Shown in pieces: positions 16,203 to 56,092 of a stretch of 56,092 nucleotides of DNA. Each line of letters opens with the position of its first letter. The first letter of the stretch is position 1. Location: positions 1-56,092 of the IMG/VR virus record IMGVR_UViG_3300036851_000592. One strand, 5' to 3'. A model generated the notes under the pieces. The model did not search any database and was not told the origin of the DNA. It saw only the letters and a list, made by a program, of their open reading frames with translations. The translations under genes were made by a program, and so were the position numbers. The stretch is from a virus (taxonomy: Duplodnaviria; Caudoviricetes).

Positions 16203-16253
16203 AACCTTCGCTCCTTCCAGTTTCGCGCGGGCGCCATGGGCGCGCGGCGATGT

Positions 16254-16972: not shown

Positions 16973-16974
16973 GG

Positions 16975-17619: not shown

Positions 17620-17624
17620 GGCTT

Positions 17625-17652
17625 GCGGCGAAGCCGCTAGCGGCTTCGCCGC
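17625..17652. repeat. Perfect 28-bp palindrome filling an intergenic gap
   Basis: GCGGCGAAGCCGCT-AGCGGCTTCGCCGC. Confidence 0.9.
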
Positions 17653-19688: not shown

Positions 19689-19719
19689 GCGCGCGGGGCC
19701 TCCCTCTTCAAAAAAGAGG

Positions 19720-20778: not shown

Positions 20779-20808
20779 GATCGGAGTTCCTTTTCTCGAT
20801 GCTGGGCG

Positions 20809-21186
20809 TTAACGAGCGACGATGTCGATCGCCTTGAGCGCGGTCACGTAGGCCGCCTCTCGCGGGTTGTCGGTATCATCGGCAGGGATGGTGAGTTCGG
20901 AGAGATTGACGACGCTGTCGCGTGCCGTATAGACGGCGCCAGTGACGTCGCCATCGGTCGCGTCGACATTGTCGTACATCACTCCAACGGGCGCCGTGAT
21001 CACAGCGTCAGCGGAATTCAAGAGGCCATCCGCGGCGATGATCTTTCCGGCGCCATCAAGCTGCACGACCTGACCGGCGACGAGAACCTGACCGCTAAGC
21101 ACGGTCGCGGTTTCGCGCGAGAACTGAGGATCAGCCTCCCACACGATGTACTCGCCGGTGTGTTTGCCTTCAGTGAGGACAGACAT
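20809..21186 (-). CDS. Head decoration protein (gpD-like)
   Basis: LTEGKHTGEYIVWEA...SRE, DNVDATDGD...ARD. Confidence 0.85.
   Translation of the reverse strand: MSVLTEGKHTGEYIVWEADPQFSRETATVLSGQVLVAGQVVQLDGAGKIIAADGLLNSADAVITAPVGVMYDNVDATDGDVTGAVYTARDSVVNLSELTIPADDTDNPREAAYVTALKAIDIVAR
20937..20967 (-). other. Protospacer for spacer 1, in the head decoration gene
   Basis: 29/31 identity to 55390-55420; mismatches at positions 1 and 26. Confidence 0.93.
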
Positions 21187-21242
21187 ATGTTGATCTCCTC
21201 GGTTTCAGAATTTCGATCTACCGCGCCGACCGGCGCTACGCG

Positions 21243-23922: not shown

Positions 23923-24134
23923 CAGCTCAGCCCCTTCGAAGTGGCGAAGCGCACGGCCTTCGTTCGCCGTATGCCCGCGGCACCGGCGATGTCCGCCTGC
24001 ATGATTGCTTGGAGTTCGAGCATATCCTCGAGGTCCGGGTAATCGACTTCGCGGTCGGTGTATTTGACGCGCTTAACGCCCTGGGCGATAGCCTGGGTAA
24101 GGGCATCGAGCTGGGCCTGGGTATAAATCGCCAT
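23922..24134 (-). CDS. Head completion protein (gpW-like)
   Basis: YTQAQLDALTQAIAQGVKRVKYTDREVDY. Confidence 0.85.
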   Translation of the reverse strand: MAIYTQAQLDALTQAIAQGVKRVKYTDREVDYPDLEDMLELQAIMQADIAGAAGIRRTKAVRFATSKGLS

Positions 24135-24274
24135 CGTTGCGTAATATCGCGAAGATGGTCCTAGCACAAGGGGTGGGGCCTCCACCGGCTGGCCTGCCAA
24201 GACTTAGTGGGTGCTATCACGGGAAGCGCCCTGAGCCGATGGAGGTAGCGGGCATCCTGACCAATCATGATGCG

Positions 24275-24332
24275 AAAAGCAATGGCATTGCTCGGATGTG
24301 GACTTGCGCCGGTGCGGCATCAGAGCGAAGGT
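24275..24332 (+). promoter_or_regulatory. Diverged copy of the operator/promoter block
   Basis: AGCAATG-G-CATTGCT palindrome then GACTTGCGC...AGAGCGA, same layout as 25045 and 50087. Confidence 0.6.
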
Positions 24333-24443
24333 CCACCTTGCGTCCAACTAGTGGGCGTGAACCTGGCGAACACAAAATCGCTTCCCGCGCTTTTCGCCAA
24401 AGCGATCCTTAATGGACGGGAGTGGTTTGAAAGGAAACTAGCC

Positions 24444-24791
24444 ATGAAATGGACTCTGTTCAAAGACGCGATGCCGGCCATCGGTCAGCCGCTCGTCATT
24501 TTGTATTTGGACTTCGCCGAGGTCGGATTGACATTTTGTCATACCCGCACCGGATGGCTCGAAGAGCGTGGATTCGGCAACGTCATCATGGATGCCGGCA
24601 ATCAATTGAGCGATTACGAACATGCCACACTCGAGAAGTGGGGGGCTTGGGCGTATCTTCATGAGGCCACGTCCGAAGCAATCGCTGGATGTGCGTTCGC
24701 CAAGGGGCACACCGAAGTGATCACCTTCGAAGGCACCGGGATGACGGTCTCGGTCGAGACTAACGAGATGCTCGAATACGCTACGGTGTAG
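24444..24791 (+). CDS. Hypothetical protein
   Basis: AAGGA RBS and ATG 24444. Confidence 0.6.
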   Translation: MKWTLFKDAMPAIGQPLVILYLDFAEVGLTFCHTRTGWLEERGFGNVIMDAGNQLSDYEHATLEKWGAWAYLHEATSEAIAGCAFAKGHTEVITFEGTGMTVSVETNEMLEYATV

Positions 24792-24793
24792 TC

Positions 24794-25012
24794 GTGATCA
24801 GGATCGACAGGAATATTCCGCTTCCGCCATACAAAGCCAAGGGAAGGAGACCGGGCAACATTTACCCGTTTCGCATGATGGCGATCGGAGATAGCTTTTT
24901 TACCGAGAACGTCCGGGCCTTCAATTCTGTGCCGAATGGATTCGGCCGATGGGAGTCTCGAACGATCGAAGAGAAGGGCAAGCGAGGCATCAGGATTTGG
25001 CGGATCGGCTGA
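24794..25012 (+). CDS. Small basic putative DNA-binding protein
   Basis: IDRNIPLP...YPF..M.IGDSFF...GIRIWRI, a recurrent phage small-protein pattern. Confidence 0.65.
   Translation: MIRIDRNIPLPPYKAKGRRPGNIYPFRMMAIGDSFFTENVRAFNSVPNGFGRWESRTIEEKGKRGIRIWRIG
24841..24870 (-). other. Protospacer for spacer 4 (perfect match)
   Basis: 30/30 reverse complement of 55590-55619. Confidence 0.97.
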
Positions 25013-25015
25013 GAA

Positions 25016-25039
25016 AAAGGGGCGCTTTGGCGCCCCTTT
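25016..25039. terminator. Intrinsic terminator, possibly bidirectional
   Basis: AAAGGGGCGC-TTTG-GCGCCCCTTT. Confidence 0.7.
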
Positions 25040-25044
25040 CCATC

Positions 25045-25153
25045 AAAAAAGCAATGCCATTGCTCCGAATCGACTTGCGCAAAACGGCGATTAGAGCGAT
25101 GTTGTTTTCATTGAACGGGGCAGCGCCCCACCTGAGGAGGACCAGCCGATGAC
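25045..25153 (+). promoter_or_regulatory. 109-bp block (palindrome, putative promoter, RBS, ATG), copy A
   Basis: Identical to 50087-50195. Confidence 0.85.
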
Positions 25154-25462
25154 AATTTCCCTGATTACCGAGCACCGCGATTGCGCGATGATAGCGGGTG
25201 ACGAAGAAAAGACCGTTGTCGGTCATATCAAGCGGCATGGACGGTCGAGGCCTTCGGCATGAGTTCCGAACATTCCTTTGTGAGCCTCGCCGCCGCCGAG
25301 TATTGGCTTCTCGCGATGGTCATCGAGTTCGCGGAACTGAACAAGGAGGCATGAAAGGAGGTTCACCTTCGAAGGCGCCCAGCCCGGCATTTCCCCTCGC
25401 CGGGCTCAGGGCAGTGCAAGGCCTTCGATGTGAGGGCCGGAACCGAAGAGGGACTAACGACG

Positions 25463-26065
25463 ATGAAACTCTCCGACACTCAACTGGTGATCCTCACCAA
25501 GGCGGCTGGCCGCGATGACGGCTCAGTCTACCCGCTTCCGCGCGGGCTCAAGGATGGCGCGGCGACCCGGGTGCTTAACACCCTGATCAAGACGAAACTC
25601 ATTGAAGAGGTAGAGGCCAAGCGCGGCGAGACCATGTTCCGCGAGACCGGTGATGGTCACGGAGTAACGCTGGTGATCACCAAGCGCGGTCTCGAAGCGA
25701 TCGACGGCGACGGAGGCGACGCGAAGGTGACCGAGCCGAAGACGAAGGCCAAGCCCGCGCCCACGCCAAAGAAGCAGAAGGACGCCGCGAAGACCAAGGC
25801 TGCGGCCCGCGCCGAACGCAAGGCGACGGCCAAGCCGAAGGCGGCCGCCGCCGCCGAGCGCGCCCCGCGCGACTCGAAGCAGGCCAAGATGATCGAAATG
25901 CTAAAACGCCCGAATGGCGCCTCGGTTGACGAGATCGCGGCTGAGTTCGGCTGGCTCAAGCACACGACTCGCGCGGCGGTTTCAGTCGCGGTTCGCAAGC
26001 TCGGGCTCACGTCGACGGCGACGAAGGAAGAGAACCGCGGAACGGTCTACCGGATCGCGGCCTAA
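25463..26065 (+). CDS. DUF3489-like protein (C-terminal winged helix)
   Basis: MKLSDTQLVIL..AA.R.DG and KQAKMIEMLKRPNGASVDEIAAEFGWLKHTTRAAVS. Confidence 0.85.
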   Translation: MKLSDTQLVILTKAAGRDDGSVYPLPRGLKDGAATRVLNTLIKTKLIEEVEAKRGETMFRETGDGHGVTLVITKRGLEAIDGDGGDAKVTEPKTKAKPAPTPKKQKDAAKTKAAARAERKATAKPKAAAAAERAPRDSKQAKMIEMLKRPNGASVDEIAAEFGWLKHTTRAAVSVAVRKLGLTSTATKEENRGTVYRIAA

Positions 26066-26071
26066 TCAATC

Positions 26072-26097
26072 GGGGCGGCCAAGCGCCGCCCCATTTT
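26072..26097 (+). terminator. Intrinsic terminator
   Basis: GGGGCGG...CCGCCCC followed by ATTTT. Confidence 0.65.
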
Positions 26098-26122
26098 CTC
26101 TCTCACACACAGGAGTTTCCAA

Positions 26123-26335
26123 ATGAACGATGTTAAGATCCGCTGGGATCAGACTTCATATGACACGAGCGGTCGCTTGGCTGATGTGATCGGCGGTCGA
26201 CTGCTCGTCAAGCGCTCGCGCCCGCGCGCCCGCACATTCGATGGGAAGTTCAACGGTCGATTCCTTGGCTGCTGGCCTTCACGCGATGAAGCCATGGCGG
26301 CCGTTGAACGCATATATCGGGAGGGTTTGCTATGA
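26123..26335 (+). CDS. Hypothetical protein
   Basis: AGGAG RBS. Confidence 0.6.
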   Translation: MNDVKIRWDQTSYDTSGRLADVIGGRLLVKRSRPRARTFDGKFNGRFLGCWPSRDEAMAAVERIYREGLL

Positions 26336-26529
26336 CTTCCTACCGCCGCGTGATCAATCTTCACCTGATGACCTCGCCTTCGCCTGACGGCTTGCCGCGC
26401 TACAAGTGCGTCGCCACCACGAACACTCACGAGCCCGCCGTTGGCGCGATCCTGACCGAGGACGAAGTCAAGGAATGGCTCGAGAAGGTCGCGCGACCAA
26501 GCGAAAATCTCACCATCAATTTCAGGTGA
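26332..26529 (+). CDS. Hypothetical protein
   Basis: ATGA coupling to the previous ORF. Confidence 0.55.
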   Translation: MTSYRRVINLHLMTSPSPDGLPRYKCVATTNTHEPAVGAILTEDEVKEWLEKVARPSENLTINFR

Positions 26530-26532
26530 CGA

Positions 26533-28467
26533 TCAGCGCATCATGAATCTTGAGCGGCTCTGCACGGGCCGCTTTTTCTGTTGCGAAGGCCTGAGCGGCG
26601 CCGCCGCGTTGGCAACGACGAACATGCCTTCGTCATCGGACGGCCGCTCAGCCTCCTCGGAATGGCGCTTGGCGTCCTCTTTCATCGCAGCCTCTTGCAT
26701 GAGGCGCTGAACCTTGCCCCAATGAATGACCATCGATCTGAGCGCGGCGAAGGCGTAGACGCGGCAATCGAGCGCTTCGTTCCGCTGACCGGGTTTCGGT
26801 TCCCAAGATCGCACCTTGATGCCGCGAACCAAAGTCCACACGGCTTGCTCAGCGGTCATCTGCTCATACCATGCCGGGTCACGGCCCATCGGGAAATGGC
26901 AATAGCCGGGCCCGGGATTTTTAATGCGCAAGCGCCCGAAGATAATGTCCTTCGCCCCGTCGACGCCAATGCCGAAAAGGTTGTCGATCTTGCCTTTGTT
27001 ATTCTTGATGTTGAATTTCGGCCAGATCGGCCGGCCGGGCCCGGGCATGCCCTTGATCGCGTTGATGCGGCGGCCTTCCTTGTAGCGCACGAAGTTATAG
27101 ACGGCGTCGGTGAAGTGACCGGAGTCTATGCACGTTGCCTGAACCGGAAGCATGCGGCCGCCGGCGACGCGGGTCGGCCGCCTCAGATATTCGTCAAGAT
27201 CATCCCAGGGCGCTGGCGTCGAGAGATCGCCATAGATCACCTCGTGATCGAGCGACCAGGATTCCTCCTCAAGGCCCCAGCCAACGCGCTCGATCTCAAG
27301 GCGATCGCCCTGAACGTCGACTCCGCATGTGACCACCAGCACCGAGCCCGGCACGCCCTTCTCCCATTTCTCAGCCTGGGCGCGCTTGTGGAGCGCGTGA
27401 TGGTCAACTGTCTCGCCGCGGTCCTCCCACGTTTCGGCCATGACGGTATTCACGAACACCTGCATGAGGTAGGGATCGCCCTGAGCCGCGTGCCATTGCT
27501 TGACGACATCGGCCAGCTTGATCCACGGTGAGTACCATTGCGGGATATCGAAGCCCGCGATGCCTTCGCGCGGGCGCTGGCTTCGCCATTCGCCTTTCTG
27601 ATCGGCGTCCCAGCGCTGCTGATCGGTCCATGACGCCTTGCATTCCTCTTCGCAGCATTGATACCGCGCCGAGGCGTAGACCGGCTTGCCGTTCGCGTCC
27701 TTATCGTATTTCACCTGAGCCCAATTGAGCACCTGGAAAGAGCCGCACTTCCAACAGGGCACCCAGCGCTGAGCCTTGTCGCTCGCTTCATATTCTCGTT
27801 CCACAACACTCGCTCCTTTGATACCGGGTGACGAGCCGATGAACGTCTTGGCGTTCCAGAAATTGGTTTGCCGTTGGCGCGCGAGCGTGAGCGGGTCGCC
27901 CTCGGCCATCTTGCCGGCGCCGGCGGAACGCTGCCAGCGGTCCACTTCGTCCGCGAGCAGGATGCGAATCGGCCGGCTGGCGAGGCCCGAGGGAACGTTG
28001 GCCCCGACGAGCGCCATGTAGCCGCCGGGGAATGACTTCGAACGAATCGTGCCCTTGCTCGAGCGCGACTTCGTCTCGCCGACGCGATCGAGCACTTCCG
28101 GGTTGTCGCGAATCATCGGCTCGAGGCGCTGCTTTGACCATTCGCGCGCCGCCTCAAGCTCAGGCATGACGAGCAGGATCGGACCCGGGTCTTGATGCAC
28201 ATGGTAGCCGAAGGCGTTCAGCAATAGCTGCGTGAAGCCGACTTGCGTGCCCTTCTTGACCACGACGGTGTGCACCGAGGGATCGGTCCACGCATCCATG
28301 ATGTCTTGAAGGTAGGGCGCGCGGGACGTTTCCCACTGGCCAGGCTCGGCCGAGTCCTCAGGCGAAAGCTGCCGATACTGATCGGACCATTCGGAGAGCG
28401 TCAGTCTTGACGAAGGCTTGAAGCCAGCGAAAAAGAACTGCTCAAGCTGCCTTGTTGATTCTTGCAC
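26533..28467 (-). CDS. terL: Terminase large subunit (GpA family)
   Basis: KGTQVGFT, LLADEVDRW, EGDP, GVDVQ, IDSG, RNEALDC. Confidence 0.95.
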   Translation of the reverse strand: MQESTRQLEQFFFAGFKPSSRLTLSEWSDQYRQLSPEDSAEPGQWETSRAPYLQDIMDAWTDPSVHTVVVKKGTQVGFTQLLLNAFGYHVHQDPGPILLVMPELEAAREWSKQRLEPMIRDNPEVLDRVGETKSRSSKGTIRSKSFPGGYMALVGANVPSGLASRPIRILLADEVDRWQRSAGAGKMAEGDPLTLARQRQTNFWNAKTFIGSSPGIKGASVVEREYEASDKAQRWVPCWKCGSFQVLNWAQVKYDKDANGKPVYASARYQCCEEECKASWTDQQRWDADQKGEWRSQRPREGIAGFDIPQWYSPWIKLADVVKQWHAAQGDPYLMQVFVNTVMAETWEDRGETVDHHALHKRAQAEKWEKGVPGSVLVVTCGVDVQGDRLEIERVGWGLEEESWSLDHEVIYGDLSTPAPWDDLDEYLRRPTRVAGGRMLPVQATCIDSGHFTDAVYNFVRYKEGRRINAIKGMPGPGRPIWPKFNIKNNKGKIDNLFGIGVDGAKDIIFGRLRIKNPGPGYCHFPMGRDPAWYEQMTAEQAVWTLVRGIKVRSWEPKPGQRNEALDCRVYAFAALRSMVIHWGKVQRLMQEAAMKEDAKRHSEEAERPSDDEGMFVVANAAAPLRPSQQKKRPVQSRSRFMMR

Positions 28468-29703: not shown

Positions 29704-30644
29704 TACATCTCGTCCACGATAATGGCCTTGACCGGGAACGTGCTGCCAGTGCGCGTTTTCTTTCGTAAGTTGTGGTGGCCGGCTTCCTTCCAGTCCGTGT
29801 ACGTCATGCGCTTGCGCCTCACGAGGCCCTCGACGGTGGTGGTTCCGAAATACGGGCGCGGGATTCCATCGCTGCCAAGATCAGCGTTGCTCGGCGACCA
29901 GAAGCCGCCGGGGTGACGGATGAGTGTGCCATCGCCGCCGGCGATCGCCGCATCAAGCGCGCGCTGCATTTCCCTGCTGATCTCTTTCGGCCAGGGTGCC
30001 ATTATATTTCGTCCTTCGGGATCAGGCGATACTCACACAGGCCATATCCATCAAATACCCGTTCGATCCATTCGAGCCAGACTCCATCATTCGTGCCCGT
30101 GATTCTGACCGGATGCCACGCGAACCATGGATGCCACTCCAGCCTTGCCAGACAGCGCTCCCTTTCATCCAAGCCAAGCTTCAGTCTCACTTTTCGTTCT
30201 CCACCTTTTTGAGGGCTGCATACATCAGCCCGACAAGATTGAAGTTACCGTAGAGCAATGTTTGGGGAATGAATGCTCCATCAAGGTGATGCATCGTGCC
30301 ATCGGCATTGTCGGGAATGGCTACCGGGAGCGAACGCTGGAAATCTCCCTTGTGAGAAGGAAGCGCCTCTTGCCATTCGTCGATGCTGTCATAGAAGGCC
30401 TTCGCTAGAGCCTCAGCGCGCTTTTGCCGTTCGGTGGTCATCGCTCTTCTCGCAGGATCGCGCGGCCGTGGTCTGTTATGCGCACAAATTGCACCGGGCG
30501 GCTGCTCGGGCTCGGGATATAACAGAAGTCGGCAAGCCCGTCGTCTCGCAGCCGCTGAACGACGCCCGGGTTTAGCTCCTGAGCGGGCACGGTAGCCTCG
30601 GCAAGTTCCCTCAAGGCGTCACGCGATGCCGGTTTCAGTTTCAT
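29703..30644 (-). CDS. Four coupled small hypothetical ORFs (29703-30002, 30002-30190, 30187-30441, 30438-30644)
   Basis: Chain of overlapping start/stop codons. Confidence 0.55.
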
Positions 30645-31924
30645 CGTTTTACTCCTTTACGCTTGAGCCTCTGTGTTCGAGCATCGAGGCCTTGGCCCGA
30701 GTCCTCGTGCTTAGCCTTGCGGCCGGTAAAAACTTCCCACCTTCTGACCGCCATGTCGACATAGACGGGATCAAGCTCGATCGCGTGGACGATGCGCCCG
30801 GTCATTTCGCCGGCGATGATCGTCGTGCCGCTTCCGCAAAACGGATCATAGATGTGGTCGCCGCCCTTCGAGTTGTTCTCGATCGGACGGCGCATGCACT
30901 CGACCGGCTTTTGCGTCGAGTGATTGGTGCGGCCATCATCGGTCTCGCCCTGCGTCGCATGCATCATCGGTATTTCCCAAACCGTCGCCTGCTTGCGATC
31001 GCCTGACCAGTGACCGGTCCGGCCTTCGCGGACCGCATACCAGCATGGCTCGTGTTGCCAATGATAATCGCCGCGGCCGATGGCAAAGTTATTCTTCGTC
31101 CAGATGATTTGAGAACGGATGATGAAGCCCGATGCCAACAGCCCGTTGGCGACGTCAGGCGCGTACACGCCGGCGTGCCAGACATAGGCGACATCGCCCG
31201 GGAACAGGGCCCACGCCTCGCGCCAGTCTTTGCGATCATCGTTCTCGACTTTGCCCAGCGCGTGGTTGCCGGTGCTGAATCGCTTTCCACTCTTTTTGTG
31301 AAACCGCTCAGCCTTCGGCCGCCAGCTTGCGTCATAGGCTACGCCGTAAGGCGGGTCGGTCACCATCAAGTGCGGCCGCGCCTTGCCCATCGCGAGTTCG
31401 ACGACGGCCGCCTTGGTCGCATCGCCGCAGACGAGCCGATGCGAGCCGAGCAGCCAAACATCGCCGGGCTCGACACCGATCGCCGCGCGCGGCTCAGGAA
31501 CCTCGTCCGCTTCACTTTCAGAGCCGATTGATCTCGCCAGCGAGGCCGCGAGTTCGCCCGGATCAAACCCGGTCAGATCGAGATTGAAGCCATCGACCTG
31601 GAGCCCCGCAAGCTCAGCCGCGAGCTTGTCCAAATCCCACTCCGCTTCCTCGCCGGTGCGGTTATCGGCGATGCGATAGGCGCGTGCCTGAGCGGGTGTC
31701 AGGTCTTTTGCGACGTGAACGGGAATCTCTTTCATTCCCAGGCTTTTCGCCGCTTCCCATCGCGTATGCCCGACGATGATCACGCGCTTGCGATCGACAA
31801 CGATCGGCTGACGCCATCCGAATTCCTTGAGCGCGCCGGCGACCTTGGCCACAGCGCTCTCGTTTCGGCGTGGATTGTTCGGGTACGGAGCGATGGAACC
31901 GATGGGAACTAAGGCGACATCCAT
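30641..31924 (-). CDS. ParB-N-domain-fused N6-A/N4-C DNA methyltransferase
   Basis: PYPNNPRRN...IIVGHTR (ParB-N); TDPPY, HSTQKP, DPFCGSGTT. Confidence 0.92.
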   Translation of the reverse strand: MDVALVPIGSIAPYPNNPRRNESAVAKVAGALKEFGWRQPIVVDRKRVIIVGHTRWEAAKSLGMKEIPVHVAKDLTPAQARAYRIADNRTGEEAEWDLDKLAAELAGLQVDGFNLDLTGFDPGELAASLARSIGSESEADEVPEPRAAIGVEPGDVWLLGSHRLVCGDATKAAVVELAMGKARPHLMVTDPPYGVAYDASWRPKAERFHKKSGKRFSTGNHALGKVENDDRKDWREAWALFPGDVAYVWHAGVYAPDVANGLLASGFIIRSQIIWTKNNFAIGRGDYHWQHEPCWYAVREGRTGHWSGDRKQATVWEIPMMHATQGETDDGRTNHSTQKPVECMRRPIENNSKGGDHIYDPFCGSGTTIIAGEMTGRIVHAIELDPVYVDMAVRRWEVFTGRKAKHEDSGQGLDARTQRLKRKGVKR

Positions 31925-33750: not shown

Positions 33751-34362
33751 TCAAGTCCCCATCGATTTGAGGCTGTTCGCGAGGCCCTTCAAGCGCTCGG
33801 CCATCGCGGCGCGCTCCTCAGGCGTCCGCGGATATTTTTTCGCCTCTTCCGCTTCGCGTTGTCGGCGATTGTACTCGGCGATGTGCTGCTGAGCGCGCAG
33901 CCTCACGACGTCGAATCGCGCCTTGATCGTCTCGCAAGCTTCGCGAACATCCGAGGCCTTCGGGTTGTGACCGAGTCGACCAGGCAAGCCGGTGTACACG
34001 TCGACGACTTCGATGCAAACGCGCTCGCTGTAGTTCGAGAGAACTTCGATCAACGCGATGAAGTAGCCTTTGGGATCATGCGGAGCGAGTTCGGGAAATC
34101 CGCGCATGAGCAATTCGGCGAAACGCTGTGCACGGAGGATATTGGGATCGTCCCTGAGCGGCCGCGCGCTGTAATCGAACTCGGCGATGAACCGCTGACA
34201 GACTTCGGGCGGAAGGAGTTTCGAGTTCGACGCCGGCGGCGCGCTAGTGTTCAGAACGGCCAGTGCGTTCGCGAATCCTTTCGCCGACATCGCGGACTGC
34301 CTCTGCAAGTCCCTGCCGCGTGCCAGGTCGAGCGACGGTTGTCTTGCGATGGTTGTCGTCAT
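33751..34362 (-). CDS. Hypothetical replication-associated protein
   Basis: Overlaps the end of the initiator gene (lambda P position). Confidence 0.55.
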   Translation of the reverse strand: MTTTIARQPSLDLARGRDLQRQSAMSAKGFANALAVLNTSAPPASNSKLLPPEVCQRFIAEFDYSARPLRDDPNILRAQRFAELLMRGFPELAPHDPKGYFIALIEVLSNYSERVCIEVVDVYTGLPGRLGHNPKASDVREACETIKARFDVVRLRAQQHIAEYNRRQREAEEAKKYPRTPEERAAMAERLKGLANSLKSMGT

Positions 34363-35533
34363 AGGCGCCCTCCATCAGGCTGGTGAACGATTCGGCTTGA
34401 AGCAGGAATTTGAACGAGCAGCGAAAGTCGGTCCTCTCACCACGGAGGAATTTGCTTGCGCGAACTTTTGCCATTGCGATTTTCCATCCGTCAAGTCCGC
34501 CGCAATCGGCGAGTCTCGCCCTGAGCTTGCCCTTTCGTGTGTCGGAAAGGTTCTGGCACTGAGCGAGGCTGAGGTCTCGGGCAACATCATTCCACAGCGC
34601 GACCGCCTGCTTGAGTTCGGAAGCAGAGACCAAAGGCGGCTTTGTCGCGCTCGCCGAGGACGAGAGAGATACAGGGGATTCTGTTTCAATGGGATCTCCG
34701 AAGGAAAAGTCAGTCTCCGAACTATCCAGAATCTCCTCCCTCTTATCTCCTCCTATTATCTCCTCCCTCTGAAACATCTTTTCCACTTTCGCAGGTTGCG
34801 ACAAGGCTGTCGCATTTCCAATTTCCCCATTCGCATTTGCGACAGATTTTGTCGCAAGTGCGACTGAGCCAGTCGCAAGTTGTTTTTTGCCGTATACTTT
34901 CCTCATGCAAAGCTCAGCAAGCTTTTCCCTAGAATAGATCGACAGAAATTCCTCTACCGACATGTCCTTTTTGAGTATATTGCAGGATTTGCAAGCGGCA
35001 ACGAGGTTGTTGAGATCGTTAGTTCCATTCTTTTTACGTGAGACTTTATGGTCTATCTCCAGCGTGTTCGCGCGCTTGCGGTAGTAAGTGATTTCCGAAT
35101 GGCAGTAATAGCACTGGCCTTTCTGACGCTCGCATAGGAGTTTGGGAATTGTACTGAATAGATCGGCCGGTTTCTTTGGCTCCTGGCTTTCCCAACTGAC
35201 GAACTTAGCAACGTCGTCGTCGATCGGGAATAGATATGACGGCGATTTCGGGCGTTGCCATTGGCAGAAGTTCCGAATTGCCCCTAAATGTTGCCCATCA
35301 CTATGAAAGTCACGAATCATGTTCTCGGCCGCAAGTATATGTAGGGTCTTGATGATATCGACCGGGTCGACCGGAAAGAGGCGAACTTTCAGGGTTGTCG
35401 CACGCCATTTGAAGATGCCGCGGTCATCGGATTCGGTCAATAATCCTATGAAAAGGAGCCGGGCTTCATAGGGAACATTTAGGAATGCATCGTCGGTAAA
35501 AAGACCCGGATGAACACTTCTGATTCTGGCCAT
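34244..35533 (-). CDS. Replication initiator with in-frame HNH domain
   Basis: MARIRSVHPGLFTD...DDRG N-terminus; CYYC..IDH..NLVAACKSCN..K; SKFLRG..F.FLL....LMEGAYD C-terminus. Confidence 0.8.
   Translation of the reverse strand: MARIRSVHPGLFTDDAFLNVPYEARLLFIGLLTESDDRGIFKWRATTLKVRLFPVDPVDIIKTLHILAAENMIRDFHSDGQHLGAIRNFCQWQRPKSPSYLFPIDDDVAKFVSWESQEPKKPADLFSTIPKLLCERQKGQCYYCHSEITYYRKRANTLEIDHKVSRKKNGTNDLNNLVAACKSCNILKKDMSVEEFLSIYSREKLAELCMRKVYGKKQLATGSVALATKSVANANGEIGNATALSQPAKVEKMFQREEIIGGDKREEILDSSETDFSFGDPIETESPVSLSSSASATKPPLVSASELKQAVALWNDVARDLSLAQCQNLSDTRKGKLRARLADCGGLDGWKIAMAKVRASKFLRGERTDFRCSFKFLLQAESFTSLMEGAYDDNHRKTTVARPGTRQGLAEAVRDVGERIRERTGRSEH
34797..34877. repeat. Three palindromic TGCGAC-N6/7-GTCGCA repeats, candidate origin iterons
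   Basis: 34797-34814, 34837-34857 and 34859-34877, inside the initiator gene. Confidence 0.65.
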
Positions 35534-47837: not shown

Positions 47838-48194
47838 ATGGTCGCCTATTCCTTCAAGGCTAGATTCGCTCAGCCCATTCTCGACGGTGTCAAAAAACAG
47901 ACCATCCGCGCTGACCGCAGGCGCCACGCGCACCCAGGCGAAGAGCTACAGCTATATACCGGGCGCAAGCTGATCGCCTGCGCGATCTGCAAAGAAGTGG
48001 TTCGCGTCGAAATAGACTTTCGTTGCCCTCAGGTGCTTATCTGTCGAGAAGGAGGTTGGTCTATCCTGAAGGTTGAAGATTTCGCGCGCGCGGATGGATT
48101 CTCGTCATTCCATGCGATGGCGGAATTTTGGCTCTCCGTTCATGGGGCAACTTCGTTTCATGGCTTCATGATCAGATGGGACCGGCTGCTATGA
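47838..48194 (+). CDS. ASCH domain protein
   Basis: F...F...IL.G.K.QTIR, LQLYTG, FARADGF. Confidence 0.75.
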   Translation: MVAYSFKARFAQPILDGVKKQTIRADRRRHAHPGEELQLYTGRKLIACAICKEVVRVEIDFRCPQVLICREGGWSILKVEDFARADGFSSFHAMAEFWLSVHGATSFHGFMIRWDRLL

Positions 48195-48784
48195 CGCCGC
48201 TCGAGTTCGTCAGAGCCGCGCGCGTCCCGCATTCGCTCGAGCCTCAGACGTTCGGGCTATGGACGATCGAGCGGCATATCACTCAGCCTTGCGAGGCGGT
48301 GACAGCCTGCTTCGATGACTATACGATCCTGAGGCGCTGGAGCACGCGCTCGCTTCATCTTCCAGCCGGCGAAGTGGTCATGCTCGATACGATGCAGGAA
48401 CTCGTCTCGCATATGCCGATCTGGCTTGCCGCGCGCGGCCGCGTCCTGATCACCGGGCTCGGCCTCGGCTGCGTTGTCCGCGGGCTCCTTGCGAATCCCG
48501 AGATCGAGCACGTCGACGTTGTCGAGATCGACGAAGCAATCATCCGCGTTATCGGACCCGAGTTCGCCGGCAACGAACGGCTGACGCTCCATCACGGTGA
48601 TGCGACAACGATCGAACTGCCGGGCCGCCATTGGGACTTCGCCTGGCATGATCTCTGGGTCGACGACGGTTGCCTGCAGCTTGTTCACGCGCATCTTTTG
48701 AAGCGGTTTCACGGCCGGACAGGAAGGCAAGGCGCTTGGAAAATGCCGCGTTGGTTCAGGCGCCGTCTGCCTGAATTGCTTTGA
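48191..48784 (+). CDS. Class I SAM-dependent methyltransferase (spermidine synthase-like)
   Basis: VLITGLGLG, VVEID, GDA, WHDLW. Confidence 0.75.
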   Translation: MTPLEFVRAARVPHSLEPQTFGLWTIERHITQPCEAVTACFDDYTILRRWSTRSLHLPAGEVVMLDTMQELVSHMPIWLAARGRVLITGLGLGCVVRGLLANPEIEHVDVVEIDEAIIRVIGPEFAGNERLTLHHGDATTIELPGRHWDFAWHDLWVDDGCLQLVHAHLLKRFHGRTGRQGAWKMPRWFRRRLPELL

Positions 48785-50136
48785 TGATTTATGGCTCGGT
48801 CTGTTCCGGCATCGAGGCTGCGACGGTTGCGTGGCGGCCGCTCGGATGGCGCGCGGCGTTCTATTCGCAGTTCGATCCCGAGCATAAGGGGAAGGGCCCT
48901 GACTTTGCCTCGGCGGTGCTTGCCCATCATTATCCGGACACGCCGAATCGCGGCGACATGACCCGTTTCAAGGAGTGGCCAGGTGCAACTATCGATCTTC
49001 TCGTCGGCGGAACGCCCTGCCAAAGCTTCTCCATCGCCGGTCTCCGAAAAGGATTGGATGACCCGCGTGGCAACCTCATGCTTACCTATCTTGCAATTGC
49101 TCAACGCTATCGGCCCTCGTGGCTGGTTTGGGAAAACGTGCCCGGTGTCTTGTCGGTTGATGAAGGACGGGCTTTTGGCACCCTCCTCGGAGGGATGGCA
49201 GAACTCGGGTATCATGCGGCCTGGCGAGTGCTTGACGCTGAGTACGTGCGAGTGGACGGCTTTGCCCGAGCAGTTCCCCAGCGACGACGGCGTGTGTTCG
49301 TTGTCGGATATCTTGGAGACTGGCGACGTGCCGCGGCGGTTCTATTTGAGCGCGAAAGCCTGTCGGGGAATTCTCCGCCGCGCCGAGAAACGTGGAAGGG
49401 TCTTGCCTCGAGTCTTGCGGCGCGCACTAGAGGTGGTGGCGGGCTCGGGACAGACTTCGATCTCGATGGAGGATTGATCGCCGCGAGGACGATTCAGGCA
49501 GGCGGACATTCGAACAATCCGATTGACGAAAATCTTGTCGCTCAGATCGCGTTTGGCGGAGGTAATACTGTCGGCTCCATCGACGTGGCAACGGCCAGGA
49601 ACGGCCATGCGGTCCCGCATGGCCGTCTGGATTTCGAGAGCGAGACGTTTGTCGCTCACCCGATCTTGGGAAAAGAGAACTCCAGTCACGATCACACGAT
49701 GGACACCTACGTCTCCCACGCCTTGCGCGCCGATGGCTTCGACGCGAGCGAGGACGGCACAGGGCGCGGGACGCCGCTTGTGCCCACCGCCTTCGATTGC
49801 AAGGCCGGCGGGAAGACTGGATTTGCAATTGGCGACGTGCCCGGTTCAATTCGCGGTGATGGCCATGGTGGAGGTCACGCAGCCGTCGCTCTCTCCATGC
49901 GGGAAGAACCGCACAAATGGGCCGTCAGAAGATTGACCCCCGAAGAGTGTGAGGCACTCCAGGCAATCCCTCGCGGCTACACGCTGATTCCGTGGCGCGG
50001 GAAGCTCGCGCCTGACGGGCCGCGCTACAAGGCGCTTGGGAATAGCTTCGCGGTCAACGTCATTCGCTGGATCGGGCATCGGATCGAAAAAAGCAATGCC
50101 ATTGCTCCGAATCGACTTGCGCAAAACGGCGATTAG
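48781..50136 (+). CDS. DNA (cytosine-5) methyltransferase
   Basis: SVCSGIE, GGTPCQ, WENVPG, PQRRRRVF, RRLTP.ECE.LQ, YKALGNS. Confidence 0.95.
   Translation: MMIYGSVCSGIEAATVAWRPLGWRAAFYSQFDPEHKGKGPDFASAVLAHHYPDTPNRGDMTRFKEWPGATIDLLVGGTPCQSFSIAGLRKGLDDPRGNLMLTYLAIAQRYRPSWLVWENVPGVLSVDEGRAFGTLLGGMAELGYHAAWRVLDAEYVRVDGFARAVPQRRRRVFVVGYLGDWRRAAAVLFERESLSGNSPPRRETWKGLASSLAARTRGGGGLGTDFDLDGGLIAARTIQAGGHSNNPIDENLVAQIAFGGGNTVGSIDVATARNGHAVPHGRLDFESETFVAHPILGKENSSHDHTMDTYVSHALRADGFDASEDGTGRGTPLVPTAFDCKAGGKTGFAIGDVPGSIRGDGHGGGHAAVALSMREEPHKWAVRRLTPEECEALQAIPRGYTLIPWRGKLAPDGPRYKALGNSFAVNVIRWIGHRIEKSNAIAPNRLAQNGD
48983..49477 (+). CDS. Nested alternative-frame ORF resembling the M.EcoHK31I beta polypeptide
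   Basis: W.NSG....GE....T.E.......CSLS.ILET......F.LS....GI.RRA.KRG..LP (comparison from memory). Confidence 0.55.
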   Translation: MQLSIFSSAERPAKASPSPVSEKDWMTRVATSCLPILQLLNAIGPRGWFGKTCPVSCRLMKDGLLAPSSEGWQNSGIMRPGECLTLSTCEWTALPEQFPSDDGVCSLSDILETGDVPRRFYLSAKACRGILRRAEKRGRVLPRVLRRALEVVAGSGQTSISMED

Positions 50137-50195
50137 AGCGATGTTGTTTTCATTGAACGGGGCAGCGCCCCACCTGAGGAGGACCAGCCGATGAC
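50087..50195 (+). promoter_or_regulatory. 109-bp block, copy B
   Basis: Identical to 25045-25153; overlaps the end of the C5 methylase. Confidence 0.85.
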
Positions 50196-50514
50196 CATCA
50201 CCCTACTGAAGATAGAAGAATTCAAGATCGGCCTCGCGCTGCTCAATCTCGTGAGCGCGGTCGCGCATAGCATGGACCGCGCCGCGTTGATCGACAGCGG
50301 CGACGACATTTGCGGATCGCTGGTCGAGACGCATGAGACTTTTGCCGATTTCTGCAAGAGCCTTGGCCAGCCAGCCCATAGCCGCACGACGCCAGCAGGC
50401 TATGAAATCCATGAATGGACCGACGTGCAATTCCGTCGCGGTCAGACGCGCGGATCGCTGTATCTCATGGAATTCGCGGTCGGCAACGTCTCCATGTACA
50501 ACGGAGGCCGCTAA
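50191..50514 (+). CDS. Hypothetical protein
   Basis: GAGGAGG RBS. Confidence 0.65.
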   Translation: MTITLLKIEEFKIGLALLNLVSAVAHSMDRAALIDSGDDICGSLVETHETFADFCKSLGQPAHSRTTPAGYEIHEWTDVQFRRGQTRGSLYLMEFAVGNVSMYNGGR

Positions 50515-52819: not shown

Positions 52820-53149
52820 ATGGGTGAAGCGAAGCACACACCGGGTCCATGGAAAGTAACAAAATCATCAGAGCGCAAAACACTTTGCGTAGTGAACGAT
52901 GATACGTGGATTTGCGGGGAACTCCAAGCGCTGAACGGGACGGCCATTGATGAACGCGAATGCCTCGCCAACGCCCGCTTGATCGCCGCCGCTCCTGAAA
53001 TGTACGAGGCGCTTGAACAAGCCGAAGCTTGCATGAGCATCGTGGAACCGCGAAGCGACAAGGCGGAATATCTGCGGATTCTTGGCGTGATCCGCGCCGT
53101 AATCGGCAAGGCAGAAGGCCGTCAGCCCTCCGCCCAGAGAGAGGAGTAG
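52820..53149 (+). CDS. Hypothetical phage protein (HTPGPW...ANARLIAAAPE family)
   Basis: Recurrent phage motif. Confidence 0.75.
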   Translation: MGEAKHTPGPWKVTKSSERKTLCVVNDDTWICGELQALNGTAIDERECLANARLIAAAPEMYEALEQAEACMSIVEPRSDKAEYLRILGVIRAVIGKAEGRQPSAQREE

Positions 53150-53404
53150 CTTGGATGGGAGAGGGCTGGCAACCGATTGAGACGGCTCCGAAGGATGGGA
53201 CCAACCTTCTGATGTGCAGCGGCGATCACTGGATGACGACCGGCAGTTGGAATAAGTGGCGCGGCGAGTGGTGCATCAATGCGCCGGGTTATCCTCGCTA
53301 TGGGTACGACGAACAGCCAACACATTGGCAATCGCTGCCCGCCTCGCCCTCCGCCCAAGGAGAGGAGTAGCTCGGATGGGAGAGGGCTGGCAACCGATTG
53401 AGAC
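53125..53404 (+). repeat. 59-bp direct repeat pair (53125-53183, 53346-53404; 3 mismatches)
   Basis: Spans stop, RBS and first codons of two DUF551-like genes. Confidence 0.9.
53155..53370 (+). CDS. DUF551-like protein
   Basis: WQPIETAPKDG...PTHW..LP. Confidence 0.75.
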   Translation: MGEGWQPIETAPKDGTNLLMCSGDHWMTTGSWNKWRGEWCINAPGYPRYGYDEQPTHWQSLPASPSAQGEE

Positions 53405-53573
53405 AGCGCCAGAGGGCGAAGTGGTCGAAACCAAGATTGATGATGCGCTAGGAGTCAGGAATCAGACCAGGCTACGGCGCAAGGGCCGTCTTTGGTTTTC
53501 TCCGGACATGTCGATGTATGTCTACTACGAGCCGACGCATTGGCGCGCCCCGCCCACAACAGGAGAGAGATAG
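53376..53573 (+). CDS. DUF551-like protein, second copy
   Basis: WQPIETAP...YYEPTHWR. Confidence 0.7.
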   Translation: MGEGWQPIETAPEGEVVETKIDDALGVRNQTRLRRKGRLWFSPDMSMYVYYEPTHWRAPPTTGER

Positions 53574-53798
53574 ATGCGAAACGCGGCCATGGTTGCCGAG
53601 GAAGCGCTCAAGGATGCGATCAACCTTATAAATTCACAGTCTGGTCGCATCGATCGATTGCGCTGCGCCCTTGAGGAAATTTCCACACTCGATGCTGATG
53701 AGGACGAAGCGCTTGCTCGTCAGTGCAAAGAAGGCGGCGCGGCAAGATGGGCGAAAGATATCGCGGTCGCCGCGCTGCTCAAAGACAAACCCACATGA
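53574..53798 (+). CDS. Hypothetical protein
   Basis: AGGAG RBS. Confidence 0.55.
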   Translation: MRNAAMVAEEALKDAINLINSQSGRIDRLRCALEEISTLDADEDEALARQCKEGGAARWAKDIAVAALLKDKPT

Positions 53799-53816
53799 CA
53801 GCGCGCGGGAGCACCA

Positions 53817-53982
53817 AGCCATGACCGACACCGAGAAGCTGGTAGAGCGGCTGGAGTTTTGGAGCAAACACCAGTACCGCGTGGTTGATAGCCCTTGGGG
53901 AACAAGTCCCAACGGAGACCTTCGCTTAGCCGCCTCCGAACTCACCCGCCTGCGCCAGCGCGTCGAGGAGCTGGAGGGGGCG
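53817..53982 (+). repeat. Left ~166-bp direct repeat flanking the CRISPR module
   Basis: Matches 55949-56092 plus 106-127 with 2 SNPs. Confidence 0.9.
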
Positions 53983-54024
53983 CTGGGAAACGGCGGATTT
54001 TCCAAAGCGCCCGGAGAGGAGTGA
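53821..54024 (+). CDS. Shortened paralog of the 55953-298 gene
   Basis: Same first ~55 aa and same KAPG.E end; middle missing. Confidence 0.65.
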   Translation: MTDTEKLVERLEFWSKHQYRVVDSPWGTSPNGDLRLAASELTRLRQRVEELEGALGNGGFSKAPGEE

Positions 54025-54025
54025 G

Positions 54026-55348
54026 ATGGGAAACTGGCAGGACAATAAACCGGAGGAAGTGAGGCGCGTCTATCTCTATGGCGCGTTCCCGCCCAAGGAT
54101 GGCCTCGCCGATTTCGACAAGGCTCAGGAGTTGAAGCGAGAGATGTGGGCCGAGCTGTGCGCTATCTATCGCCAGTATGTCGCCGATCTAGCGCTCGTGC
54201 CCGCCGCCGCCGCGCAAGCTGTCGCATCTGGCGATAAGGCTATAATTCGCGAAGCGGAAAAGGAGATGAAGTCCGATCTGTCGGCACGCCTATACGCGCG
54301 GATGGCGGATGCGCGCCGCAGCGTCGCCGCGAAGGGGCTGCACAGCGGCGACTACAACGCTGTGACATTCCAATTCATGGGAGCGGCGCGCGCCTCGAGG
54401 AAACGCGGAGCCCTTCCGGGCGACGGTGACAAGCCGATGGAATCATACTGCGGCGCGGCCGTCGTCAATCAGGTCAAACGGTTTTCGCCCGCGCGGCTTT
54501 TGCACCACACCGAAACTCGGATTGAATTCATCGCGCGACCGCGAAGCAAGTCCCGCCGCGGCCGGCGCCTATTGGCGAGGCTGCACATCACCGTGCGGGG
54601 GCCTAAAAATCCTCTCGGTCACAAGGTACTATCGGTCGATTTCATCATGCACCGGCCGCTGCCTCCCGACGCTGAAATCGTCGAGGTACGGTTGATGCGC
54701 AAGACAATCCCCGCCACCACTCGCGACCGCAAGTCCGCGCTGTGGACGAAATGGCAAGTCGCGATCGCCGTGGCCACTCCCCGGCGTGTTCACGACCGCG
54801 CGGATAGGATCGCAGGCCTTGCTCTCACTTGGGCCGACGACGGATCTGGCGAGCAGGAATTTTGCGTCGTGGCGGAGAATTCCGGCCGCACCGTAACGCA
54901 TGTGATGGAGGCTGGCCATGCCGAGACATGGAAGAGGCTGACAACGCAAAAAGAAACCGCAAGCACGCTCGATGGCGAAGCGCAGGCCAGCGCGCTCCAT
55001 GCCTGTGCGGTTCATGAACGACGTCTCGCGCTGAGGCGCCGTGAGTTTTTGCGCGTCACCGCCGCGCGGCTGACAACTGTCTACAGCGTGATCGCCATCG
55101 AGGACATGTGGCTAGCCGGTATGGGCGTGAAAAAGCATCTCGCGCCGGCCCTGTTTCGGCAGAATCTCAAAAACGCGGCGAAGGTGCGCGGAACGGAAAT
55201 CCTGGAAGTCAAATTGCCCAAGCGAGAAGGAAGAAGCGCGCGGGATTGCGCCAGAATGCTGCTGGAGGAGGCGGAAAAATTCGACGGCGACGACGGAATG
55301 TTGTCCGGCGACGAAGAGAAAAGTCAAGTACATGAGGCGGTTGCATGA
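54026..55348 (+). CDS. Miniature Cas12m-like (type V-M/V-U1, TnpB-derived) effector, predicted nuclease-dead
   Basis: VYLYG..PP start; MHRPLPPDAEI; RuvC-I AGLALTW (Asp absent); bridge helix RRREFLRVTAARL; RuvC-II IAIED; LAPALFRQ.L; no CxxC zinc finger; abuts the array. Confidence 0.8.
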   Translation: MGNWQDNKPEEVRRVYLYGAFPPKDGLADFDKAQELKREMWAELCAIYRQYVADLALVPAAAAQAVASGDKAIIREAEKEMKSDLSARLYARMADARRSVAAKGLHSGDYNAVTFQFMGAARASRKRGALPGDGDKPMESYCGAAVVNQVKRFSPARLLHHTETRIEFIARPRSKSRRGRRLLARLHITVRGPKNPLGHKVLSVDFIMHRPLPPDAEIVEVRLMRKTIPATTRDRKSALWTKWQVAIAVATPRRVHDRADRIAGLALTWADDGSGEQEFCVVAENSGRTVTHVMEAGHAETWKRLTTQKETASTLDGEAQASALHACAVHERRLALRRREFLRVTAARLTTVYSVIAIEDMWLAGMGVKKHLAPALFRQNLKNAAKVRGTEILEVKLPKREGRSARDCARMLLEEAEKFDGDDGMLSGDEEKSQVHEAVA

Positions 55349-55353
55349 AAGCC

Positions 55354-55908
55354 ACCCCTCACACCCTGCATCGGGGGGATGCCGATGACTTCGACGCGAC
55401 CGATGGCGACGTCATTGGCGACCCCTCACACCCTGCATCGGGGGGATGCCGATGACCGCATCATCCGCTCAGCCGAAAGCTTCGGCACCCCTCACACCCT
55501 GCATCGGGGGGATGCCGATGACTGAGTTTCTTGCTTTGGAGGCTGAGATACCGGCCCCTCACACCCTGCATCGGGGGGATGCCGATGACAACGGGTAAAT
55601 GTTGCCCGGTCTCCTTCCCGGCCCTCACACCCTGCATCGGGGGGATGCCGATGACTCGGCAGCCCGAATCAGATCGTCGCGTCCAGGCCCTCACACCCTG
55701 CATCGGGGGGATGCCGATGACATGGGTCTCGCCTCCGAGCCGGCGCATGGCGGCCCTCACACCCTGCATCGGGGGGATGCCGATGACCGCATCTGGCGAA
55801 GCGCCCGGCCCATGCGGGGCCCTCACACCCTGCATCGGGGGGATGCCGATGACCTTGACGCTGACCTTCTCGCCAGCGGCCGCGGTCCCTCACACCCTGC
55901 ATCGGGGG
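55354..55908 (+). CRISPR. CRISPR array: 8 full repeats, 1 truncated trailer repeat, 8 spacers of 30-31 nt
   Basis: Invariant 34-nt core CCCTCACACCCTGCATCGGGGGGATGCCGATGAC at 55356, 55423, 55489, 55556, 55622, 55688, 55754, 55820, partial at 55887; period 66-67. Confidence 0.97.
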
Positions 55909-55948
55909 CGCATCAAGCCGATACAAGTTGAAGTTCTGGAGGAATACG

Positions 55949-56092
55949 AGCCATGACCGACACCGACAAGCTGATAGAGCGGCTGGAGTTTTGGAGCAAA
56001 CACCAGTACCGCGTGGTTGATAGCCCTTGGGGAACAAGTCCCAACGGAGACCTTCGCTTAGCCGCCTCCGAACTCACCCGCCTGCGCCAGCG
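55949..56092 (+). repeat. Right direct repeat and start of the wrap-around gene (ATG 55953)
   Basis: Matches 53817 onward; last 105 nt equal bases 1-105. Confidence 0.9.

Follow-up and report, generated by a model that had tools for sequence, protein, structure and literature searches.

The window analysed here is the complete circular genome of a virus, 56092 bases long (IMG/VR record IMGVR_UViG_3300036851_000592), in which the last 105 bases repeat the first 105. On its plus strand lies a single effector gene of the Cas12m lineage, followed directly by a CRISPR array. A preliminary description of this DNA, made from its letters, had reported an open reading frame (ORF) of 440 amino acids (aa) ending 5 nucleotides (nt) before a nine-repeat array, and this arrangement is confirmed, the first repeat starting at 55354. 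The effector gene and array form a cassette that is bracketed by a direct repeat of 166 bp. The features of the locus are as follows.

54026–55348, plus strand: effector gene, 440 aa, ATG start, TGA stop at 55346–55348, Cas12m lineage
55354–55920, plus strand: CRISPR array, nine 36-nt repeats with a period of 66–67 nt; eight spacers of 30–31 nt, all different
55885–55920, plus strand: degenerate last repeat of the array; only its first 24 nt survive, including an exact match of 22 nt
53817–53982, plus strand: upstream copy of the 166-bp direct repeat, in which a small phage gene starts and runs for its first 54 codons
53821–54024, plus strand: truncated 67-aa ORF, the upstream-copy version of the small gene, with its stop 1 nt before the effector ATG
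55949–56092 and on across the circular junction, plus strand: downstream copy of the 166-bp direct repeat, 164/166 identical to the upstream copy
55953 onward, over the circular junction to about window position 298, plus strand: intact 110-aa version of the small gene

The cassette looks like an insertion by recombination into a row of phage genes, and recombination between the two 166-bp copies would also allow its loss. Promoter and terminator scans gave no promoter-like site in 53300–56092 and nothing between the effector gene and the array, and Rfam returned no match in 53500–56092. This bracketing repeat, the finding that four of the eight spacers match the carrier's own genome, and the recognition of a whole clade of short proteins go beyond the preliminary description.

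The public gene call for the effector is 401 aa long and begins at Met40. A start at 54026, giving 440 aa and having GGAGAGGAG upstream, is preferable, because the family alignment begins at residues 13–20 (RVYLYGAF). Every one of the six sequence blocks named in the preliminary description occurs in the 440-aa protein, in the order stated. Searches with the single sequence gave weak matches: Pfam OrfB_IS605 at E = 0.23 (12.1 bits against a cut-off of 30.5), NCBIfam IS200_TnpB at E = 0.081 (12 bits against a cut-off of 425), UnCas12m4a in the PDB at E = 0.18, and a weak ‘transposase’ match in PHROGs at E = 0.0041. A HMMER scan of 1.84 billion representatives returned 34 proteins at E ≤ 0.001, of which 13, including the window's own protein in its Met40 call, lie at E ≤ 1e-30; the weaker matches (E 1e-5 to 1e-3) are a set of 519–630-aa proteins. 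When a family profile made from the window protein and 14 relatives was compared with the PDB, it matched 23vw_A, ‘CRISPR-associated DNA-binding protein Cas12m’, at E = 2.6e-19 and 23vu_A (UnCas12m4a) at E = 4.2e-07, with TnpB at E = 0.28.

Structural modelling was performed with AlphaFold2 from the family alignment, giving a predicted local distance difference test score (pLDDT) of 85.5 and a predicted TM-score (pTM) of 0.79. The preliminary description had proposed structure prediction as a check for a WED/RuvC fold, and the model, compared by VIA-align, has a bilobed WED/REC/RuvC fold resembling the solved structures of Cas12m2 and GoCas12m. In Foldseek the first four ranks are Cas12m2/Cas12m structures (8hhl, 8hhm, 8hio and 8pm4; E 5e-14 to 3e-12, query TM-score 0.59–0.64), which together with the profile match bears out the Cas12m kinship first proposed from short sequence blocks. 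VIA-align gave Z 21.9 for TnpB (315 residues), 21.3 for Cas12m2 (375) and 20.0 for GoCas12m (390); over the Cas12m2/Cas12m structures Z ranges from 19.7 to 21.3 across 375–390 residues, tied with TnpB, and for Cas12f it is 14–19. The nearest neighbours of the effector in the ESM Atlas are viral clusters of about 567–569 aa and TnpB clusters. A two-copy complex prediction, made without controls, scored 0.00, a value that speaks neither for nor against a homodimer. Judged by its sequence, the effector belongs to the Cas12m lineage, and its modelled architecture is that of a minimal TnpB core. It retains HRPLP and GLHxGxYN, which by position would match the crRNA-side and PAM-side contacts of Cas12m (crRNA, CRISPR RNA; PAM, protospacer-adjacent motif), and the motifs HRPLP and GLxWGxYN are common to the short clade described below and to long Cas12m-like proteins.

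The effector belongs to a group of rare, functionally unnamed proteins of 410–466 aa, known from metagenome assemblies, with 1–6 members per 90% cluster in the 10 clusters examined. An alignment of 29 rows was assembled: the short clade supplied 17, long relatives (519–630 aa) ten, and outliers the other two. In a quick, unrooted maximum-likelihood tree the 17 short rows form one clade with a Shimodaira–Hasegawa-like approximate likelihood ratio test (SH-aLRT) support of 99 and a stem length of 0.92. The further miniaturisation proposed in the preliminary description and a primitive form of TnpB size are both compatible with this unrooted tree and with the tied VIA-align scores. Its members have diverged to 24–38% identity, with length, fold motifs and 16 invariant positions retained. 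Two further proteins, P0023 (540 aa) and P0035 (519 aa), are Cas12m-like and keep the zinc finger and an acidic triad, but their RuvC-I to RuvC-II distances are short, at 90 and 128 residues; they may represent a stage midway from the short clade to full-size Cas12m.

The catalytic site of the window protein is broken (A265 / E355 / none). As the preliminary description had read it, the RuvC-I aspartate is replaced by alanine, Ala265, at a position where the ten long relatives have D, N or H; RuvC-III is degenerate, the ‘DQDxNA’ motif being absent; and the CxxC…CxC zinc finger is missing. Its claim that the nuclease is dead stands as far as the triad is concerned, but the RuvC-II glutamate is still present, as E355 in IAIED. 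This glutamate is retained in the window protein alone (0/16 other clade rows have E). Across the 17 rows the RuvC-I position holds A (12 rows), S (2 rows) or, once each, M, V or D, and the RuvC-II position holds Q (10 rows), D (2 rows), P (2 rows) or, once each, T, I or E (the window). Most clade triads read A/Q/none or A/Q/(E, H, G). A full D-E-D triad occurs in 0/17 clade rows, and its lack throughout a well-supported clade implies long-standing selection for a function other than cutting. The CxxC…CxC zinc finger with the following ‘ENxA’ is found in 5/17 rows (P0011, P0012, P0013, P0015 and P0020) and is absent from 12/17. Since members with and without the finger interleave in the tree, it has been lost at least three times.

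Two further parts of the long proteins are reduced or missing. The RuvC-I to RuvC-II distance is 90 residues in the window protein and 70–96 in the clade, against 143–177 in 8/10 long relatives, and therefore the helical RuvC/REC2 insertion of Cas12m is missing; between the two motifs the model has only helices 298–313 and 317–352. The N-terminal helical REC ‘roof’ segment spans 77–120 residues in the clade, against 142–160 in 9/10 long relatives. In the model the long helices 27–56 and 71–102 lie in this stretch, where Cas12m has an Arg-rich helical ‘roof’, and the segment is 40–60 residues shorter than in the long relatives. In GoCas12m, the ‘roof’ and the RuvC insertion are reported to extend the reading of the heteroduplex from 12 to 18 bp (PMC11013384). 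For PmCas12m, a preprint reports that engineered deletion of the RuvC insertion (382–450) or of the TNB (551–578) leaves activity markedly lost or abolished, and that the smallest working engineered version is 581 aa long (bioRxiv 10.64898/2026.03.26.714355).

Eight of the nine repeats share an identical 34-nt core. Because the degenerate ninth repeat marks the distal end, the array is read in the direction of the gene. The first two bases of the successive repeats are AC, AC, AC, GC, GG, GG, GG, GG and GT; they belong to the repeat, since the protospacer matches are not extended by them, and their block pattern fits stepwise growth of the array from the gene-proximal end. The repeat can form a 5-bp hairpin, GCAUC/GAUGC, with a G5 loop, and a C-rich tract lies before the hairpin. 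On both strands of the genome outside the array, nothing resembles the repeat over more than 10 nt exactly or more than 13 nt with one mismatch. There is thus no anti-repeat outside the array, and therefore no candidate for a trans-activating crRNA (tracrRNA), as the preliminary description had it. Its statement that adaptation genes are lacking also holds up: Cas1 (PF01867) and Cas2 (PF09827) each gave 0 matches at E ≤ 1 in the whole genome, in searches that were positive in 9/14 and 10/14 control genomes, respectively.

The linkage of gene and array recurs in three further IMG/VR loci, L002, L003 and L004. L002 is a phage of 39.6 kb, about 90% complete, with four repeats starting 15 nt after the effector stop; L003 (55% complete) and L004 (78% complete) carry the same protein, identical to P0006, and three repeats starting 2 nt after the effector stop. 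In 4/4 viral loci, the window included, the array therefore lies directly 3′ of the effector, 2–15 nt past its stop, and three repeat types are represented. Scans of genome contigs with a smaller family alignment (34 pattern matches) and of metagenome contigs with the family alignment (42 pattern matches) found no relative.

All three repeat types are 36 nt long, and their hairpin arms differ yet still pair (GCAUC/GAUGC, GCGUC/GAUGC with one G-U, and GUUUCGC/GCGAAAC). Each type also has a G-rich loop and an upstream C-rich tract able to pair with it; as the two pairings interleave, a pseudoknot is possible. The comparison of the three types is no more than suggestive of such a pseudoknot, and Cas12m crRNAs are reported to form one (PMC10442227, PMC11013384). 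The folding energies of the repeats on the coding strand are no better than those of shuffles (z −1.07 to +0.58), and so the structural argument rests on co-variation among the three types only.

These repeats bear on the idea that the locus is a counter-defence decoy, in which the dead effector or the repeat RNAs would disrupt a host type V-M or other CRISPR system, for instance by soaking up host crRNAs or Cas protein. An anti-CRISPR role has already been suggested for inactivated Cas proteins that phages encode (phage Cas9 variant II-C2, PMC12669027). However, repeat and effector change together over the three locus types, as expected of a cognate pair and not of mimicry of one host, and a decoy would have no need of diverse, unique spacers of uniform length. 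We regard this explanation as highly improbable.

Four of the eight spacers match the carrier's own genome outside the array, with 0–2 differences each.

20937–20967, minus strand: spacer 1 protospacer, head decoration gene; 29/31, differences at guide positions 1 and 26 (V74F and T82I)
24841–24870, minus strand: spacer 4 protospacer, 30/30, in a 72-aa plus-strand DUF7303 ORF (24794–25012) between terminase and portal
15797–15826, minus strand: spacer 5 protospacer, major tail gene; 29/30, mismatched at guide position 6 (genome G128, spacer version S)
13413–13442, plus strand: spacer 6 protospacer, tape-measure gene; 29/30, with a synonymous change at guide position 1

Of the four differences, three lie at guide positions 1–6, which has a probability of about 0.03 if differences are spread evenly over 30 positions. 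Type V guides are least tolerant of mismatches in the PAM-proximal positions. In a survey of homologues, S128 occurs in 5/46, position 82 is variable with I in 1/8, and F74 occurs in 0/8; natural variation could account for three of the four differences, namely the synonymous one, S128 and the one at a variable site. In the phage L002, the first spacer is a 30/30 match to L002:6567–6596; this same-strand site belongs to that phage's own effector gene and spans the stretch coding for the conserved RPLPANARLV motif. L003 and L004 gave no self-match in contigs that are 55% and 78% complete. Targeting of RNA was considered and rejected, as the spacers have no consistent sense relative to the targeted genes.

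Spacer 7 shows two partial resemblances. Its first 12 nt equal 54223–54234 in the effector gene, with a post-hoc estimate of roughly 0.01, and it is 16/21 identical to 53994–54014, just upstream of the effector start. Both matches are at or near chance for this GC-rich genome.

We propose that the cassette amounts to a self-contained CRISPR module of a type V-M-like kind, with no adaptation genes, on the genome of a 56-kb siphophage. Its 440-aa effector would be either a protein cut back to a WED-REC-RuvC core of TnpB size or one that had not expanded past such a core. The array would be transcribed together with the effector gene, and each crRNA would consist of a repeat-derived 5′ handle (a hairpin, possibly a pseudoknot) followed by the guide. 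The crRNA–protein complex would then bind complementary double-stranded DNA without cutting it, and so block transcription or replication, much as full-size Cas12m is reported to silence by binding (PMC10442227, PMC11013384). The targets would be near-identical rival phages, in interviral competition or superinfection exclusion, with the carrier mostly protected by mismatches in the seed. Rival phages are the likeliest targets because half of the spacers would have been drawn from the structural genes of the carrier's own lineage, as one module, and the carrier's own copies are mostly mismatched in the PAM-proximal seed. For this reading as a whole, a non-cutting, crRNA-guided DNA binder aimed at close rivals, we put the chances at about even.

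Several findings weigh against it. A protein without the RuvC insertion and the TNB may, by analogy with the engineered deletions, bind poorly unless it is compensated in some other way. The V74F difference, at guide position 1, is the one that no surveyed homologue shows, and spacer 4 matches the carrier at every position, so that self is not fully spared. No PAM is common to the five self-protospacers (four in the window, one in L002) on either flank. Outside targets did not come to light in the sets searched, from which records very near the window may have been missing: the array gave no match in GenBank phages and only 3 weak, chance-level matches in plasmids; spacers 3, 5 and 8 gave 0 matches in IMG/VR, and part of spacer 5 gave 0 in metagenome contigs. 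The two spacers of L004 match their own arrays only, and this recovery indicates that the search method works. There is no close phage relative on record, and therefore the proposed rival phage is hypothetical. A search of IMG/VR with the major head protein gave one relative only, at 34% identity; the two relatives of the portal found in genomes (a Myxococcota and a Micavibrio metagenome-assembled genome, 37–40% identity) are too distant to carry protospacers; and the closest homologues on record of the decoration and major tail proteins are 53% and 57% identical. Among the sequencing runs listed, the locus occurs in one DNA run (contigs of a soil metagenome) and in no RNA run. Over 13000–25200 that run contributes one 23.8-kb contig, identical to the window and free of variant letters, so that any strain variants at the protospacers would not show.

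The same self-matches can be read as self-regulation, a natural form of CRISPR interference in which the complex would bind the phage's own late structural and DUF7303 genes, tuning or timing their expression, and in some phages feed back on the effector gene. The perfect match of spacer 4 and that of the first spacer of L002 to its own effector gene are what such a role would call for, and a dead nuclease makes self-targeting survivable. Moreover, the four self-sites lie within an 11.5-kb stretch of the late region (13.4–24.9 kb), an arrangement with a chance of about 0.035 on the circle, and the 12-nt match of spacer 7 inside the effector gene points the same way. Set against this, three of the four sites are mismatched in the six PAM-proximal positions, which looks like avoidance and not use. 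The sites also share no PAM, fall within coding regions and not in promoters, and show no strand preference, the guides being complementary to the template strand at two sites and to the coding strand at the other two; and the two incomplete loci have no self-match at all. Neither tyrosine nor serine integrases gave a match in the 56-kb genome (0 each), and hence there is no evident lysogenic state to maintain; a lysogeny switch was rejected for the lack of an integrase. On balance we consider self-regulation unlikely, though it is the strongest of the alternatives.

A more sceptical explanation is that the array is a neutral by-product, or the module a decaying one. Host Cas1–Cas2 would have filled the array in trans from phage DNA, the most plentiful in the cell, and the surviving self-spacers would be harmless through weak binding by the short effector or for want of a PAM. 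The amount of divergence fits drift, with 4 differences in 121 bases (about 3%), at which about a third of 30-mers would stay identical, and the stepwise change in the first two repeat bases, the missing common PAM, the crippling of PmCas12m by engineered loss of the TNB or the RuvC insertion, as reported in that preprint, and the rarity of the family are all in keeping with it. Decay, however, sits poorly with an intact effector ORF, with eight repeats identical in their core, with a clade that keeps its length, fold motifs and invariant positions through deep divergence, and with a gene–array architecture that recurs across three distinct repeat types. The loss of the zinc finger on at least three branches, with the rest kept, looks like tolerated streamlining and not decay. 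We therefore rate this explanation as distinctly improbable.

A bolder form of the rival-phage proposal can also be stated. Here, a TnpB-sized, dead and finger-less effector would perform crRNA-guided binding of double-stranded DNA with a 36-nt repeat handle alone, which would make it the smallest stand-alone CRISPR DNA-targeting protein, either a living link from TnpB to Cas12m or a Cas12m pared down to the extreme. It would silence near-identical rivals, the own copies escaping by seed mismatches, and would also self-regulate through perfect spacers, including the one against the effector gene in the related phage. We offer this combination tentatively and think it somewhat doubtful.

The carrier itself is, by PHROG matches to its genes, an ordinary lambda-like siphophage, with the following late genes each identified by a PHROG match.

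26536–28467, minus strand: large terminase
22378–23922, minus strand: portal
21246–22403, minus strand: head protease
20812–21186, minus strand: head decoration
19723–20778, minus strand: major head
15744–16202, minus strand: major tail
12678–15137, minus strand: tape measure

A plus-strand gene block at 23922–26533, between the minus-strand terminase and portal, breaks this late operon. Besides a 174-aa ORF, the block contains the DUF7303 ORF and the gene for a DUF3489 protein, and the only perfect self-spacer points there. A direct repeat of 118 nt, 97% identical between its copies at 25045–25162 and 50087–50204, lies just upstream of plus-strand ‘MTI...’ ORFs. Both copies open with the palindrome AGCAATGCCATTGCT, of which a weaker third copy lies near 24275–24300, and the 118-nt repeat could be a repeated promoter or operator element. 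Another direct repeat, of 70 nt and 90% identity (53125–53194 and 53346–53415), takes in the ribosome-binding site and the start of each of two small neighbouring paralogues, both of which begin MGEGWQPIETAP.

Elsewhere in the genome, the replication-initiator gene at 34247–35533 (minus strand) apparently has an HNH endonuclease domain inserted mid-gene, its PHROG matches being to an initiator N-terminus (residues 1–113), HNH (129–216) and an O-like C-terminus (238–395). The gene at 30644–31924 (minus strand) joins a ParB-like N-terminal domain to a DNA methyltransferase (phrog_498, E = 2.8e-133), and at least two further methyltransferase-like genes are present, at 16978–17964 and 48128–50136, the latter with C5-type sequence.

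The appeal of Cas12m for base and epigenome editors lies in its being a compact programmable DNA binder that by nature does not cut. A natural clade without the TNB or the RuvC insertion, array-linked through deep divergence, suggests that a working solution of about 410–440 aa exists, and the short clade shows which residues to keep in compact designs. A CRISPR-linked core of TnpB size also bears on how Cas12 effectors grew from TnpB. Furthermore, a phage with its own dead effector and spacers against its own structural genes is a tractable case of interviral conflict, or of self-regulation, by CRISPR interference. Should the protein turn out to be inactive, what is left would be a rare offshoot of type V-M in decay.

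Among known systems, the closest by descent is Cas12m (type V-M, formerly V-U1; MmCas12m2, GoCas12m and PmCas12m), which the effector resembles in profile homology and best Foldseek matches. Cas12m likewise has an array without a tracrRNA, a repeat with hairpin or pseudoknot potential, a non-canonical RuvC site and carriage on mobile elements. The solved Cas12m chains are, however, 577–614 aa long, compared with 440 aa here (410–466 in the clade), and have a zinc-finger TNB in RuvC and a large helical RuvC insertion, which reads the heteroduplex on its PAM-distal side, both missing from the window protein; the long forms are separated from the short clade by a long, well-supported branch. Published Cas12m clades carry the triads HEK/HQK, HDD, DED/NED and DED/DND/NED (PMC10442227). 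The triad here, A265 / E355 / none, is also non-canonical and belongs to none of these four. The system is thus filed as a variant of type V-M and not as a plain member, because it shares the homology, fold and array of that type but is without its zinc finger and RuvC insertion and has a triad of no listed kind. In the Cas12m literature consulted no finger-less form of 410–466 aa was found described, although its supplementary tables (134 and 30 variants) may hold short forms.

A phage-borne Cas12m has been reported in a preprint of September 2026, as MvCas12m of the myxophage MV-1, with 610 aa and an intact triad (D305/E463/D555), and is called there the first phage Cas12m (bioRxiv 10.64898/2026.09.14.751636); a 2024 review had already noted V-M in some prophages. 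According to the preprint, MvCas12m also has an eight-spacer array, no cas1, cas2 or cas4, no tracrRNA and no protospacers found. The effector here is 170 aa shorter and has neither the triad nor the zinc finger.

TnpB (ISDra2) is of the same size class and core fold, at the VIA-align Z of 21.9 over 315 residues. The RuvC-I to RuvC-II spacing of ISDra2 TnpB, whose residues we take to be D191 and E278, is presumably similar to that of the effector. TnpB is described as transposon-borne, with an active D-E-D triad and a zinc finger, and as guided by an RNA of about 150 nt (PMC11013384). By contrast, the effector here has no triad or zinc finger, stands beside an array of 36-nt repeats, and falls below the curated Pfam and NCBIfam cut-offs. 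A TnpB-style transposon was rejected for lack of a triad and of insertion-sequence context. Cas12f, which works as a homodimer on one long guide with a tracrRNA and has an active RuvC, is similar in fold (Z 14–19); the locus here has no tracrRNA candidate and no triad.

In predicted function the closest analogues are the TldRs, which are described as small, RuvC-dead, TnpB-derived, RNA-guided DNA-binding repressors, some of them phage-encoded. They use one fixed omega-RNA-like guide beside the gene and are not known to use a multi-spacer CRISPR array, whereas the locus here has nine repeats and eight spacers, and its effector is akin in sequence to Cas12m and not to TnpB (E = 0.28). The virus-borne mini-CRISPR arrays that serve in interviral conflict generally depend on host Cas proteins. 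Such arrays are reported to be likewise short, to lack adaptation genes and to hold spacers matching close relatives of the carrier (PMC11656645); in the present case, by contrast, the phage carries its own effector.

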